Source: a virus (taxonomy: Duplodnaviria > Heunggongvirae > Uroviricota > Caudoviricetes). Taken from it: a stretch of 39,749 nt of DNA. The notes below the pieces were generated by a model. The model was not told the origin of the DNA. It worked only from the letters and a program-made list of their open reading frames with translations, and ran no database searches. Position numbers and translations under genes: made by a program. Positions within the stretch are counted from its first letter, which is position 1; the number at the start of each line of letters is the position of its first letter. The stretch lies in the IMG/VR virus record IMGVR_UViG_2541047827_000012, one strand, 5' to 3'. Of this stretch, positions 2,483-29,203 are shown piece after piece.

Positions 2483-3108
2483 ACCGCCAGCACCTTACTG
2501 GCATTGATGTATCGCGCGCGCCGGTCGTCGATGCCGTTCCGGCCACCATTGATAATCAGAGTTACACGTGCAATATCGCCGGTATACTTCATGCATCCTT
2601 TGCTGGCAAAGAACCACGCCGCGCTACGAGCCGCGTATTCGTCCTGCGCCAGCAGTTCAGGACTCTCCAGCAGGTCAACCTTAAGACCGTTTCCACAGTC
2701 ACGATAGTTATTCAAACCGGTAACCTGGATAAGCCCGCGCCCACGGTAGTTCCAGCCATCACCAGGGGCATTGTTCCCCATGCGTTTGCTGTACACCAGA
2801 TTGGCAATCGCTCTCTGGCGCTCAAGTGGCAATGGTGGTTCGCCTGCACGTCGCCCCAATGCGTTGGCCTGTCCCTGAGTGAGACGCCCAGCCCGAACAA
2901 AGTTAGCCAGTCCGCTGACGCTGTAGTTGAAATTCTCCTGCAACCGGGTGAAGCCTCCAGACTCATGCCCGACCTGAGCAATAAACATAGCCTGATCTTC
3001 TGGTTTGCTGATACCAAACTCTTTCATCGCAGAAGTTATATGCGAGAACCAGCGTGCGGCCAGTGCCTCGCTGATACCAGCAGCTCGCTGGAATTGTTTA
3101 ATCTCCAT
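2479..3108 (-). CDS. Endolysin, glycoside hydrolase family 19 (chitinase-like lysozyme)
   Basis: Motifs GHESGGF and [15 protein letters not shown] resemble GH19 catalytic/signature regions; sits between holin candidates and Rz. Confidence 0.75.
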
Positions 3109-7935: not shown

Positions 7936-8008
7936 CAGAACGGCGGCACAGGGATGTGCCTTTAAATAATTCTGTACAGATTGCAGACCGGGGGTGAATA
8001 GCGTACTA

Positions 8009-8023
8009 TTACCTTAAAGGTAA
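8009..8023. promoter_or_regulatory. Operator-like palindrome TTACCTTAAAGGTAA overlapping a putative promoter
   Basis: Perfect TTACC-N5-GGTAA; putative -35 TTGCAG (7981-7986) and -10 TACTAT (8004-8009) with 17-bp spacing put the site over the -10 and start of the 8050 operon. Confidence 0.55.
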
Positions 8024-8049
8024 ACCATGTGTTTACATGAGGAGGAGAT

Positions 8050-8259
8050 ATGGGATTTTGGTTCGCTCGTACAAAAACGAGGGATAATGCACCCAGCCCT
8101 CAGGCAAAAAATGCAGAAGTTCCGGCGTCAGCGCAGGTTAACAAGCGTGGTGGTGTGTATATCTCATCACAGCAAATTTCTGAGCTTCCTGAGGTTAAGG
8201 AGATGCGTCGTCTCGCTGCTGCAATCGTTAAACAGGATCTTGCCACTGTAAGGAAATAG
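8050..8259 (+). CDS. Hypothetical 69-aa protein, first gene of accessory operon
   Basis: Strong SD GAGGAGGAG 6 nt before ATG 8050; stop overlaps start of the next gene. Confidence 0.5.
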   Translation: MGFWFARTKTRDNAPSPQAKNAEVPASAQVNKRGGVYISSQQISELPEVKEMRRLAAAIVKQDLATVRK

Positions 8260-9125
8260 TGTTGTTAGCTCTTCTAATTATCCCCATTCTGGTTAGTGGT
8301 TATATTATGATAACCGCTAACCAGTATCATTATTTCCGTTTATACCGACATGAAGGCCAGCTTCTTTATATGAAAGTAGCTGCATTAGGTACATATTGCC
8401 TTGTTGCTTCGGTAATAATTGCCGCATTTATAAAATATAAATATCCTGATTTTCACCTAGTTCACGATATGGTGGAAACTTTTAATGTAACGTCAAAACC
8501 AGAAACAGATAGAATTTACATGTGGCTGCTTCTTCTCTCAGCCACATCCATTTGCTTCTCTTTGTGTTATGTGTCTGTTGTGTGGGTGAAAGATTTTCTT
8601 CTTGGTTGTTTTTATAAACGTGATATTTATGAGCAAAAAACAGAGGCAATGAAGGCCAGAGTACTGCGAAAAACTTACTCGCAAGGTTCTTTAGACTTAC
8701 TATTGCTTGATGCTATTGAATCGGATCCTAAACGACCAATGCTGATTACTTTATCATCAAACAAAGTGTATGTTGGAATAATAAATGGTTCTGGTGAACC
8801 AACGGAAAATCAGGGTCCGCATCAGCACATATCTTTTGTTCCTTTAATGTCAGGATACAGGAACAAAGACAACTTATCTGTCACATTCACTAATGCTTAT
8901 CCAGGAGAAATACAGGTCAAGCGGACTGCAGCAATAAGAGGAATTAGCAGAAAGAAAGTGCCAGGACTTGAGATCATGGTGTCTATTGACGAAATAAGTT
9001 ATATATCATGGTTTGATTTTGAAGTATATAAAGCAACAAATAACAAAGTAGAATCCAGGGGGCACGTTATTCGTGTTACCAAAAATGGAAGAAATATATA
9101 TCAAAGAAATAGCAAAAAAGAATAG
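8259..9125 (+). CDS. Membrane-anchored protein of unknown function (N-terminal TM helices plus 160-aa soluble domain)
   Basis: GTG start at 8259 overlapping upstream stop (SD AGGA 8251-8254); about 3 hydrophobic helices in the first 110 aa; markedly AT-rich versus flanking phage DNA; followed by a terminator. Confidence 0.6.
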   Translation: MLLALLIIPILVSGYIMITANQYHYFRLYRHEGQLLYMKVAALGTYCLVASVIIAAFIKYKYPDFHLVHDMVETFNVTSKPETDRIYMWLLLLSATSICFSLCYVSVVWVKDFLLGCFYKRDIYEQKTEAMKARVLRKTYSQGSLDLLLLDAIESDPKRPMLITLSSNKVYVGIINGSGEPTENQGPHQHISFVPLMSGYRNKDNLSVTFTNAYPGEIQVKRTAAIRGISRKKVPGLEIMVSIDEISYISWFDFEVYKATNNKVESRGHVIRVTKNGRNIYQRNSKKE

Positions 9126-9145
9126 CCCGCGCTGCGGGCTTTTTT
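9125..9145 (+). terminator. Rho-independent terminator after the membrane-protein operon
   Basis: GCCCGC-gct-GCGGGC hairpin followed by TTTTTT. Confidence 0.6.
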
Positions 9146-9217
9146 GTGGACGAAACAAAAGCCAGTGCTACACTCATTGACGCCACATTGAGGTGGCTTA
9201 TAGATGGAAATTTCACA

Positions 9218-9379
9218 ATGAAAAAAGCATTTGCTGCACTGTTCGTTTTGTTGTCTCTGGTAGCTTCAACTCAGGCCTTTGCCGGTCGTTGTCAGCACGA
9301 CAGCGATACTGCCGCTGACGGCTCCCGCTGCGGTGGGCGTTCTGCGGATTCCCGCCCGGGTGGCGGTGGCATTCGTTAA
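9218..9379 (+). CDS. Small secreted peptide (signal peptide plus about 31-aa Cys-containing mature part), hypothetical
   Basis: MKKAFAALFVLLSLVASTQAFA then GRCQHDSDTAADGSRCGG...; weak RBS; the track ORF from 9146 starts inside the upstream terminator so the internal ATG was chosen. Confidence 0.35.
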   Translation: MKKAFAALFVLLSLVASTQAFAGRCQHDSDTAADGSRCGGRSADSRPGGGGIR

Positions 9380-9401
9380 AAACAAGGCCGCGAAAGCGGC
9401 C
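9378..9401 (-). terminator. Rho-independent terminator for the minus-strand gene 9411..9707
   Basis: GGCCGC-gaaa-GCGGCC hairpin (9386-9401) followed on the minus strand by TGTTTTT. Confidence 0.55.
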
Positions 9402-9402
9402 T

Positions 9403-9414
9403 GTGACATGTCAC
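9403..9414. repeat. 12-bp palindrome GTGACATGTCAC (copy 1 of 3)
   Basis: Exact 12-mer shared with 26927-26938 and 29192-29203; overlaps the stop codon of 9411..9707 and abuts its terminator. Confidence 0.8.
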
Positions 9415-9707
9415 GTCCCTTTTCTGAATGATAGCCATTCGAAAAATGATGACATTCCACCGCAGACAATAGCAAAGATGATCCCACCAAAGAAGAGAAG
9501 GCCAGCCTGCCACCACTCCCACCGCCATACATCCACAGCGCCAACCATACCAACAATCGCTCCAACAAATGGAATATAGCTCACGATGAAAGCAATGGGG
9601 GCTGCAATTATCCAGTGCAATCCCCACCATGATTCAAGCCCAGCCATAATTGCTGCCAACTGAAAAAGACCAACGACGATATAAACAATGAATCCTATAG
9701 CTTGCAT
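9411..9707 (-). CDS. Small integral membrane protein (3 TM, Trp-rich), unknown function
   Basis: SD AGGTGA before ATG 9707; 98 aa, almost entirely hydrophobic helices. Confidence 0.55.
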   Translation of the reverse strand: MQAIGFIVYIVVGLFQLAAIMAGLESWWGLHWIIAAPIAFIVSYIPFVGAIVGMVGAVDVWRWEWWQAGLLFFGGIIFAIVCGGMSSFFEWLSFRKGT

Positions 9708-9719
9708 GTAGTCACCTAT

Positions 9720-9893
9720 TTACCCAGTAAAAATAAGAGGCCTCCCCTCAATAAGGCTTGCAACAAGAACTACTCCCTGCACAACAAAGATGAACCAGCA
9801 AATAGCTTGAGTCTGAGGGTTAAGAAAATATTTGTAGCGGTCAATAAATAACAATACACCAGAAATTATCACACTCAAAATAATTAAAAACAC
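9720..9893 (-). CDS. Putative 57-aa hydrophobic membrane peptide (GTG start), not in the supplied ORF track
   Basis: My own translation: GTG at 9893 preceded by SD AAGGAAG, encoding VFLIILSVIISGVLLFIDRYKYFLNPQTQAICWFIFVVQGVVLVASLIEGRPLIFTG; stop abuts the SD of the next gene; AT-rich. Confidence 0.35.
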   Translation of the reverse strand: MFLIILSVIISGVLLFIDRYKYFLNPQTQAICWFIFVVQGVVLVASLIEGRPLIFTG

Positions 9894-22989: not shown

Positions 22990-23691
22990 TTATTTGCCAT
23001 AGAGCACTTCGGCCGCACTACGCTGGCCTTCATTACCACCGGTGACCATGCCATCTTCAGACATCGCCTTTCCGATTTTCACGAACGTTTTGACCAGATC
23101 AGGGTGATTACCCAGCCCGGTGGTGTTCAGATATTCTTTGAGTTCAGGTGTCCCGAACTGGTCAAGCGCACGCTGTGCGGCGCTAAGGTTAGAAATCAAC
23201 TTGTCGCCACCGATTTCTTTGTCAGCTTTTACATCAGCAGCCCACTGCTCGGTTGTTTTCTGCCAGGCTTCTGCCTGGCGCTGCTGCACACCTGCCAGAA
23301 TCTTCGGATAAGCATCAACCAGCTTTTGCGCTTGCTCGTTGGTCAGGTTAAGTTCTCGCGCCACCGGCTCGAATTCCTTCAACGCTTCTGTATCCAGCTC
23401 TACGCCTTCGGCAGCCTGAAACTCGTACTTCTCAGGCGCACCCTCTGGTTTATCGCCGTCCTTTTTTTCATCCTGCTTATCGTTTTCAGGCTTTTTGTCA
23501 TCAGCAGGTTTATCGCCATCAGCAACAGGTTGTGGCTTATCACCTTCCGATTGTGATGGATCACCAACTGGAGCAGGGTTATCACCTGCAGGCGCTGACG
23601 GTTCTGACGCAGCCGGAGCTGCTCCACCATCGACTGGTTGCTCATTGCAAAGACGGCGATACAGCAAACGCTCAAATAAATTCATGATCAC
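22990..23691 (-). CDS. Scaffolding protein (233 aa)
   Basis: Acidic Pro/Asp/Glu/Lys-rich N-terminus and helical C-terminus; between portal and capsid. Confidence 0.6.
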   Translation of the reverse strand: MIMNLFERLLYRRLCNEQPVDGGAAPAASEPSAPAGDNPAPVGDPSQSEGDKPQPVADGDKPADDKKPENDKQDEKKDGDKPEGAPEKYEFQAAEGVELDTEALKEFEPVARELNLTNEQAQKLVDAYPKILAGVQQRQAEAWQKTTEQWAADVKADKEIGGDKLISNLSAAQRALDQFGTPELKEYLNTTGLGNHPDLVKTFVKIGKAMSEDGMVTGGNEGQRSAAEVLYGK

Positions 23692-23984
23692 TCCTGTTCA
23701 CTGGCCTCTTTGGCCATCTTCAAATACTGTTCAGGGCAATGCGCCATAACGCGCTGAAACAGTTCCAGCGCCAGATTGCGTTGCCCCTCATTAAATGCCA
23801 TTGCCATAGCGTCCATCGGTGAGATAGCGGAAAACACACGGCCTTTCTCCAGCACCGACCAGACAACGCGACGCCCCTGTTCACTGCTCATGACAAAGCG
23901 AATGTCATCAATTTCACGCTGTGCCATGTCACGTTGCTTACGGGCGCTTTCTTCTTTCAGTTGATCATCTTCGTAATCTGTCAT
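23688..23984 (-). CDS. Hypothetical head protein (98 aa)
   Basis: Overlaps portal stop and scaffold start by 4 nt each. Confidence 0.5.
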   Translation of the reverse strand: MTDYEDDQLKEESARKQRDMAQREIDDIRFVMSSEQGRRVVWSVLEKGRVFSAISPMDAMAMAFNEGQRNLALELFQRVMAHCPEQYLKMAKEASEQE

Positions 23985-26926: not shown

Positions 26927-26938
26927 GTGACATGTCAC
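26927..26938. repeat. 12-bp palindrome GTGACATGTCAC (copy 2 of 3)
   Basis: Exact 12-mer, 5 bp after the gp49-like stop and 4 bp before the terminator hairpin. Confidence 0.8.
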
Positions 26939-29191: not shown

Positions 29192-29203
29192 GTGACATGT
29201 CAC
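29192..29203. repeat. 12-bp palindrome GTGACATGTCAC (copy 3 of 3)
   Basis: Exact 12-mer overlapping the stop codon of 29200..29541, about 40 nt upstream (minus direction) of the terminator at 29123-29150. Confidence 0.8.

Follow-up and report, generated by a model that had tools for sequence, protein, structure and literature searches.

The 53-codon ORF at positions 9218–9379 of the window (the whole 39,749-nt stretch of DNA that was analysed) is a real, translated gene under strong purifying selection, and it is a classic moron carried on a mobile cassette. The explanation that fits best overall, and that we consider likely, is a translated moron-cassette gene whose product is an exported two-Cys periplasmic peptide. 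The gene as such is already known, being catalogued as PHROG 14503 and named in RefSeq and UniProt; the new elements are the evidence of selection, the cassette boundaries, corrected expression signals and the single-copy membership of the peptide in a large uncurated Cys-loop family. A literature search found no paper on expression, export or function of the peptide.

The 53-codon gene and its conservation

The window is a complete genome of a phiV10-like Uetakevirus, with 97–98% identity over most of its length to HEMP4, phiv142-3 and phiV10. The gene and its predicted product are laid out as follows (↓ marks the predicted cleavage point):

9218..9379, + strand: CDS, 53 aa plus stop (sequence read, ORF list, PHROG 14503 match)
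9218..9283, + strand: predicted signal peptide, residues 1–22, cleavage at AFA↓G (sequence features, family conservation)
9284..9376, + strand: predicted mature peptide, 31 aa (conserved columns, AF2)
9290..9364, + strand: Cys25-to-Gly49 core of the Cys-loop module, which comprises residues 23–49 (alignment columns)

Both the sequence and the ORF list place the ATG start at 9218 and the TAA stop at 9377–9379. Translation of the full ORF gives MKKAFAALFVLLSLVASTQAFAGRCQHDSDTAADGSRCGGRSADSRPGGGGIR, or, divided at the predicted cleavage point, MKKAFAALFVLLSLVASTQAFA↓GRCQHDSDTAADGSRCGGRSADSRPGGGGIR. The original prediction had described a Sec signal peptide with an AxA cleavage site, followed by a two-Cys peptide of roughly 31 residues rich in Gly, Asp and Arg. 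The sequence agrees: MKK forms the n-region and is followed by a hydrophobic core, AFA↓G and a tail of 31 residues. The 31 residues after AFA include eight Gly, five Arg, four Asp, four Ser, three Ala and two Cys, with a computed mass of 3060 Da and a pI of 8.1.

The PHROG 14503 HMM aligns end to end with the product (E = 2.3e-40, residues 1–53 versus profile positions 1–53 of 53). Annotations of phiv142-3 (as Orf11) and of TL-2011b (as gp43, ‘putative transmembrane anchored protein’) include an identical protein, and the identical peptide is encoded on at least 1000 contigs. The gene, and with it the cassette described below, is present in 422 of 5426 complete E. coli genomes (~8%), and many genomes of Klebsiella, Salmonella and plant pathogens carry the cassette too. 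Orthologues were found in Klebsiella, Citrobacter, Cronobacter, Franconibacter, Salmonella, Pectobacterium, Dickeya, Rahnella, Pantoea, Buttiauxella and Tolumonas.

When the orthologues are aligned, the signal peptide is seen to drift, but there is hardly any change in the mature part, G-[NR]-CQHDSDTAADGSRCGGRSADSRPGG, among Escherichia, Klebsiella, Cronobacter, Salmonella, Pectobacterium and Dickeya. Comparison of the 25-codon core with 16 orthologues gave pS of 0.55–1.0 and pN of 0–0.32 (no more than 0.17 for the 13 enterobacterial-type orthologues). Differences between orthologues fell 289, 216 and 1282 times at codon positions 1, 2 and 3, respectively, and the Buttiauxella sequence differs from that of the window by 17 synonymous and no nonsynonymous changes. 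A mature part that stays fixed while the signal peptide drifts, with pN/pS far below 1, requires translation. The earlier concern that the ORF ‘may not be expressed’ is not supported by this ratio, nor by a mature peptide kept nearly invariant from Escherichia to Pectobacterium; we infer that expression takes place from the prophage. Moreover, a 27-residue core that is almost unchanged at saturated synonymous divergence must have a specific role.

The excess of third-position substitutions excludes a chance ORF, an RNA element and an overlapping antisense ORF; thus, the reading as a chance ORF or an untranslated non-coding element (RNA or terminator region), which the weak SD, the short ORF and the hairpin on each flank would favour, has a negligible probability and is effectively refuted by the substitution pattern, amino acids being kept at saturated synonymous divergence and a scan of positions 9000–9500 against Rfam returning only sub-threshold matches, on the upstream terminator.

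Several other frames were considered and rejected. A 77-aa version with a GTG start (the length of phrog_3117) has an extension that overlaps the upstream terminator and is unconserved in Citrobacter and Klebsiella. For an antisense 100-aa ORF at 9266–9568 the codon-position pattern matches the + frame instead. Nor is a short uORF that runs up to the ATGA start conserved in orthologues.

The mobile cassette and its surroundings

We mapped the edges of homology in a sample of 80 IMG/VR contigs encoding the identical peptide. Homology to the window starts at 9115–9140 in 72 of the 80 contigs and ends at 9404–9415 in 58. The shared block is usually only ~9117–9415 (~300 bp), bounded by two terminator hairpins, and beyond it the identical peptide gene is flanked by unrelated DNA of at least 10 kinds upstream and at least 10 kinds downstream. 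Outside the ORF, the cassette has the following features:

9124..9146, + strand: intrinsic terminator of the upstream 288-aa gene, left cassette edge; stem AGCCCGCGCTGCGGGCT followed by a T-run
9147..9152, + strand: weak −35-like hexamer TGGACG, 4/6 match, 16 nt upstream of the −10 (read from the sequence, prediction only)
9166..9174, + strand: predicted extended −10, TGcTACACT (TGnTACACT), conserved in orthologues
9182..9197, + strand: 5′ stem-loop GCCAC-ATTGAG-GTGGC, at or near the predicted transcript start (MFE structure, orthologues)
9206..9208, + strand: SD-like GGA (sequence read; orthologues have GG(A/T) 8–12 nt before ATG)
9385..9402, no strand assigned: terminator hairpin AGGCCGCGAAAGCGGCCT, common to the convergent late operon, with its T-run on the minus strand
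9403..9414, no strand assigned: perfect palindrome GTGACATGTCAC, right cassette edge, where homology ends

The order of the ~300-bp cassette would be terminator, weak promoter, 5′ stem-loop, ORF and terminator. It occupies an accessory slot of the genome, immediately beyond the point where the ejection/pilot-protein operon has its 3′ end. The upstream terminator is strong (stem at 9124–9140 plus the T-run). The hairpin at 9385–9402 is kept after the stop codon in nearly all orthologues; it has a + strand T-run in loci L005, L006, L013 and L016, and the T-run of the window acts for the convergent late operon.

The gene upstream of the cassette changes from phage to phage: it encodes a 288-aa membrane protein in the window, the YafO toxin in TL-2011b and a DUF2335 protein in Klebsiella phage BUCT711, and small ORFs take this place in phiv142-3. 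In other Enterobacterales prophages the cassette lies between the Rz spanin gene and terS (the position of bor in lambda), after antiterminator Q, beside a CI-like repressor, or beside an internal virion protein or Ant. In the phiV10 genome (positions 3000–3060 compared with 7936–9415 of the window), the gene is absent; its last ~20 nt (ggcggaggcggcattcgttaa), the hairpin and the palindrome are kept, fused just after the stop codon of the Bro-N gene. This remnant indicates that the phiV10 lineage lost ~1.4 kb comprising a 69-aa ORF, the 288-aa ORF and most of the peptide gene.

The peptide gene is thus shown to be a classic moron on a mobile cassette: some close relatives have it and others lack it, it occupies varied genomic contexts, and hairpins stand on both flanks, with a promoter of its own that is predicted only. 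This bears out the original view of a genuine small gene for a Sec-type exported two-Cys peptide, forming its own unit after the accessory genes. Classic envelope-protein morons, in the sense of the moron concept of Hendrix and colleagues, include lambda Bor and Lom, HK97 gp15, Cor and T5 Llp. Like them, the peptide gene is a self-contained unit between phage modules, in its case with predicted promoter and terminators, present in some relatives and absent from others, with a product predicted to be exported to the envelope; in L005 and L006 the cassette even occupies the post-Rz slot, as bor does. Unlike them, it has no sequence similarity to these genes, would encode a soluble 3-kDa peptide rather than a lipoprotein or membrane protein, and has many family members outside phages.

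The original prediction placed a possible promoter at TTGACG-N17-ATAGAT. Both hexamers are present (TTGACG at 9177–9182, 17 nt, ATAGAT at 9200–9205) but unconserved in orthologues; with ATAGAT matching TATAAT at two of six positions and a leader of only ~6 nt, this promoter is not supported. The RBS was fairly called weak, the only SD-like element being the GGA, 9 nt before ATG. Further upstream, TACACT at 9169–9174 follows just after a TG at 9166–9167. Of 14 genus-level orthologues, 11 have TAC..T in register with the window, and the alignment column of its A does not vary. Hexamers similar to TGGACG (TGGATG/TGGGCG) occur in the Klebsiella and Buttiauxella orthologues. Together, the predicted −10 and −35 score 8/12 plus the TG, at consensus level and below what a strict promoter scanner reports.

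Most orthologues have a hairpin at −34 to −42, with at least nine different stem sequences at the same position (for example GCCGC/GCGGC, GCCGTC/GATGGC, TTGCC/GGCAA and TGGCTATC/GATAGCCA). Such variety at one place across genera indicates compensatory changes; single-sequence z-scores are modest, from −0.3 to −2.3 (window 9182–9197 together with L003, L005–L017 and L160). The conserved layout consists of TAC..T, 6–8 nt, the stem-loop, a CTACACA-like motif and GG(A/T) 8–12 nt before ATG. The stem-loop is probably a 5′-terminal mRNA structure, and we read the arrangement as a candidate weak constitutive promoter whose transcript would begin with this stem-loop. Stem-loops at the 5′ end typically stabilise mRNA, as in the ompA 5′ UTR. 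A different MFE hairpin, partly covering the AUG in the window, was rejected as AU-rich and not seen in orthologues.

Several elements around the cassette deserve mention. The 12-bp palindrome GTGACATGTCAC occurs exactly at 9403–9414, 26927–26938 and 29192–29203 (0.1 copies expected from shuffles), these three copies being intergenic or placed where a gene ends; a copy with one mismatch, at 23921–23932, is inside a listed 98-aa ORF (23688–23984). The copy at 9403 travels with the cassette into TL-2011b and into Klebsiella, Kluyvera and Buttiauxella prophages. A regulator may bind the palindrome, or recombination may have joined sequences there. The upstream 288-aa protein (8259–9125, + strand) has N-terminal membrane helices, matches phrog_3630 (E = 6e-114) and has no Pfam, NCBIfam or PADLOC match; its gene is another accessory gene, swapped for YafO toxin or a DUF2335 protein in related phages. 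Two small membrane proteins are encoded between the cassette and the 824-aa pilot gene (9411–9707 and 9720–9893, both − strand). One of them, of 98 aa, belongs to phrog_3075 and has a weak holin-family match (E = 0.027); the other has 57 aa. The pair is found in some Uetakeviruses and is absent or shortened in others (the phiV10 version has 46 aa), and both proteins are missing from many of the peptide gene loci. For six proteins of the region, PADLOC gave no matches to known anti-phage defence systems.

Among 199 deduplicated loci, the pilot gene is the only neighbour that recurs across many loci and peptide variants. A convergent epsilon15-type pilot/ejection gene lies within 1.5 kb downstream in 85 of the 167 loci with enough downstream DNA, and this synteny persists at 25–32% pilot identity (Pantoea, Buttiauxella, Alcaligenes phage Piluca and a contig of 68% GC). 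Ejection proteins of podophages act in the periplasm. Superinfection exclusion, in which the periplasmic peptide would bind pilot/ejection proteins of incoming epsilon15-like phages and block DNA entry, gains from this adjacency, divergent pilots included, and from the periplasm being the compartment where ejection proteins act. We nevertheless regard it as unlikely: the peptide hardly changes where the pilot proteins differ greatly, the pilot gene adjoins only 9 of 78 distinct peptide cores, and the same peptide occurs in lambdoid and other prophages. Furthermore, its module occurs in cellular multi-domain proteins and in genomes without nearby phage genes, and the slot past the pilot gene is simply an accessory hot spot of these phages.

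Apart from the pilot gene, clustering of the neighbours in loci from genomes, viruses and metagenomes gave no conserved partner, and outside Enterobacterales there is none at all. A RiPP precursor would be expected to adjoin genes for modifying enzymes or a transporter; no conserved enzyme neighbour was found in the 199 deduplicated loci, and a Sec signal is atypical for RiPPs; likewise, no conserved adjacent immunity gene, as expected for a toxin or bacteriocin, was found. Genes of the Rap1a family (T6SS amidase immunity) directly adjoin the peptide gene in Rahnella, Devosia and Kaistia (L007, 6185–6586, − strand; L021, 6210–6539, − strand; L033, 6507–6842, + strand). Two small periplasmic proteins are thus paired repeatedly, though such pairs are rare overall.

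Probable export of the peptide

The predicted signal peptide is made up of the MKK n-region, a 13-residue hydrophobic core and the AxA site, giving the basic n-region, hydrophobic h-region and small residues at −3 and −1 that characterize Sec/SPase I substrates. These features extend to the family. Among 89 small family members, 77 have Ala or Ser at −1 (three before the first Cys), 85 have a small residue (A, S, V, G or T) at −3, and 80 have Gly at +1, the segment before being strongly hydrophobic; the AxA↓G site, two residues ahead of the first Cys, is kept in ~85 of the 89. In addition, the predicted SPase I site coincides with the N-terminal boundary of the conserved module (‘G-N-C’). From these sequence features we infer Sec export with cleavage after AFA. 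A lipobox [LVI][ASTVI][GAS]C with Cys at +1 is absent: the sequence reads F-A-G-R-C, with Cys three residues past the Ala, and in orthologues the residue before the first Cys is Arg or Asn. Some cyanobacterial relatives carry a separate lipobox.

The steps of the mechanism that we favour would be as follows. In the lysogen, the gene would be transcribed from its own weak promoter; Sec would export the product, and cleavage after AFA by signal peptidase I would release a hydrophilic 31-residue peptide of 3 kDa into the periplasm, where oxidation by DsbA would close a 12-residue loop. A disulphide between Cys25 and Cys38 spanning this loop is most likely. In some cellular architectures the module follows a hydrophobic segment and may be placed in the cytoplasm, which would argue against an obligatory disulphide.

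The peptide could instead be an N-anchored inner-membrane micro-protein, whose uncleaved hydrophobic segment would hold the Cys tail on the periplasmic face, as in MgrB. The names in GenBank/RefSeq and PHROG say so: PHROG 14503/phrog_3117, ‘transmembrane anchored protein’ (TL-2011b gp43, YP_007001994.1, UniProt A0A0A1A7U0), is the same family, and PHROG 14503 (‘membrane associated protein’) is assigned to the category ‘moron, auxiliary metabolic gene and host takeover’. In size and layout, MgrB-type regulators are also similar, MgrB sharing with the peptide a length of ~50 aa, a hydrophobic segment at the N-terminus and a pair of Cys facing the periplasm. The helix of MgrB stays in place as an anchor, and MgrB is encoded by a chromosomal PhoP-regulated gene; the peptide has no similarity to it and does have an AxA cleavage site. 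With a hydrophobic core of only ~13 residues and a canonical AxA↓G placed, family-wide, exactly two residues before the module, such that ‘G-N-C’ is the predicted mature N-terminus, we find a permanent anchor rather improbable. The PHROG, NCBI and UniProt labels are automatic and their name implies an anchor, whereas the sequence indicates a cleaved signal peptide; the label ‘transmembrane anchored protein’ most likely arose from a signal peptide misread as a membrane helix. By analogy with MgrB, a regulatory role via binding of an envelope protein would be plausible. Weak matches of the peptide to HxsA3 and MarB (E ~0.1) were rejected, as they reflect the signal peptide only.

The Cys-loop family and candidate roles

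The released part of the peptide would consist of a single copy of a module, G-N-C-x4-D-x-A-x-DGSRCG-x-R-[SA]-A-x2-RPGG, that defines a large family, extending far outside phages and not recognised in the original prediction. A profile search yielded 367 clusters at 50% identity and 839 at 90% identity, with the family core G-[NP]-C-x4-[DQ]-x-A-x-D-G-S-R-C-G-x-R-[SA]-A-x2-R-P-G-G, usually followed by one or four residues and a stop. Near-invariant columns correspond to G23, C25, D30, A32, D34, G35, S36, R37, C38, G39, R41 and R46–G49 of the peptide. Relatives turned up, when representative genomes were scanned, in Mesorhizobium, Rhizobium, Agrobacterium, Bradyrhizobium, Devosia, Methylobacterium and several cyanobacteria, as well as in Vibrio, Bacteriovorax and a Polyangiaceae MAG (Myxococcota). 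Other phages have the module too: Alcaligenes phage Piluca (‘putative secreted protein’), an Acinetobacter phage, and Anabaena phage Elbi, where it forms the C-terminus of a 159-aa secreted protein. In larger architectures it is C-terminal after linkers or hydrophobic segments, occurs in tandem copies, makes up the sole extracytoplasmic part of single-pass membrane proteins or stands at the N-terminus of secreted proteins of ~170 aa.

Homology extends to a 4-Cys variant, GNCPCPYN-x-A-x-NGSRCGGRSAYSRPGG-x-SPLCY (38 columns, hhalign probability 98.2%, E = 3e-14), which is found fused to SH3_3 and PG_binding_1 domains. The domain of these SH3/PG-binding proteins has the DGSRCG-R-SA-RPGG core in common with the peptide and differs in two extra Cys, flanking helices and larger multi-domain contexts. 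As a domain of ~70 aa it is widespread, with a helix, GNCPCPYN..NGSRCGGRSAYSRPGG..PLCY and a second helix, sometimes in tandem (P0115–P0203, e.g. P0200, P0177 and P0120). The 2-Cys and 4-Cys modules together account for at least 839 protein clusters in Proteobacteria, Cyanobacteria, Myxococcota and Bdellovibrionota.

Neither form has a match in Pfam, NCBIfam or the PDB, PDB profile searches with the 2-Cys and 4-Cys alignments gave no true match, and database names for the family are only ‘transmembrane anchored protein’ and ‘hypothetical protein’. An AF2 model from 19 sequences was poor in the mature part; with 46 sequences pLDDT reached 72 overall, 83 for residues 31–40 and ~70–83 in the mature part, giving a compact core of moderate confidence, in which a beta-bridge joins residues 31 and 37 and helical turns are short. 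A Foldseek search of the PDB with the AF2 model returned zero matches.

The few fusions to PG-binding and SH3 domains and the Rap1a and LprI neighbours point weakly to the cell wall or its hydrolases; this link is based on a few fusions of 4-Cys relatives and three Rap1a neighbours. Along these lines, the peptide might be a periplasmic inhibitor or immunity-like factor against peptidoglycan hydrolases (lysozymes, T6SS amidases, phage lysins), a role in keeping with the adjacency of Rap1a in Rahnella, Devosia and Kaistia, with LprI (lysozyme-inhibitor) domains seen twice among neighbours and with the fused relatives. It is improbable all the same, since such associations amount to 3–4 of ~100 diverse loci, similarity to the Ivy, PliC, MliC, Rap and Tsi families is lacking and the His of CQHD is unconserved outside Enterobacterales.

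A small metal- or Ca2+-binding peptide would be suggested by the likeness of D-x-A-x-D-G-S-R-C-G to the DxDxDGxxCE loop of Excalibur (PF05901): by eye, the two extracytoplasmic sequences line up in register over a Cys-bounded D-x-x-x-D-G-x-x-C loop, the peptide contains Asp, His and Cys, and one 4-Cys relative has an Excalibur-like segment, also by eye. The likeness does not extend to an HMM match (no Pfam Excalibur match at E ≤ 1). In the peptide the loop reads D-T-A-A-D-G-S-R-C-G, so that Ala and Gly stand at the two key ligand positions; the positions that are key to Ca ligation lack conservation, and acidic residues turn to Asn in the 4-Cys relatives. We hold metal binding to be very improbable.

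Returning to the exported moron peptide, the role that we favour, though at less than even odds, is that the peptide binds a highly conserved component of the host envelope, either peptidoglycan or an enzyme acting on it, so that the envelope of the lysogen would be altered beneficially, for example by protection against incoming phage or against cell-wall-degrading attack. We do not think that the peptide recognises a phage protein. Its invariance while phage backbones, pilot included, diverge, together with the presence of the module in cellular envelope proteins, makes a host target likelier than a phage protein. The broadest reading, to which we give somewhat less than an even chance, is that an ancient extracytoplasmic Cys-loop domain, hitherto undescribed and with a universally conserved envelope target, has been captured repeatedly by temperate phages as a moron that would reprogramme or protect the host envelope, the peptide being the smallest form in which this domain stands alone.

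No concept is overturned here, as morons for exported proteins are well known; the significance would rise if the module were shown to target a universal envelope component. The peptide is a tractable prophage-borne micro-protein, being of 3 kDa and synthesisable, with a possible effect on the lysogen envelope. The large uncurated domain family, which is without a Pfam or NCBIfam model or a PDB structure, deserves both.

A second small secreted family, with the motif GY-x-K/R-x-(N/D)GTYV-x-x-Y-x-R, adjoins the peptide gene in six loci with five distinct cores (L245, 2548–2874, − strand, and five other metagenome loci). In protein P0078 the GTYV motif is fused to two copies of the module.
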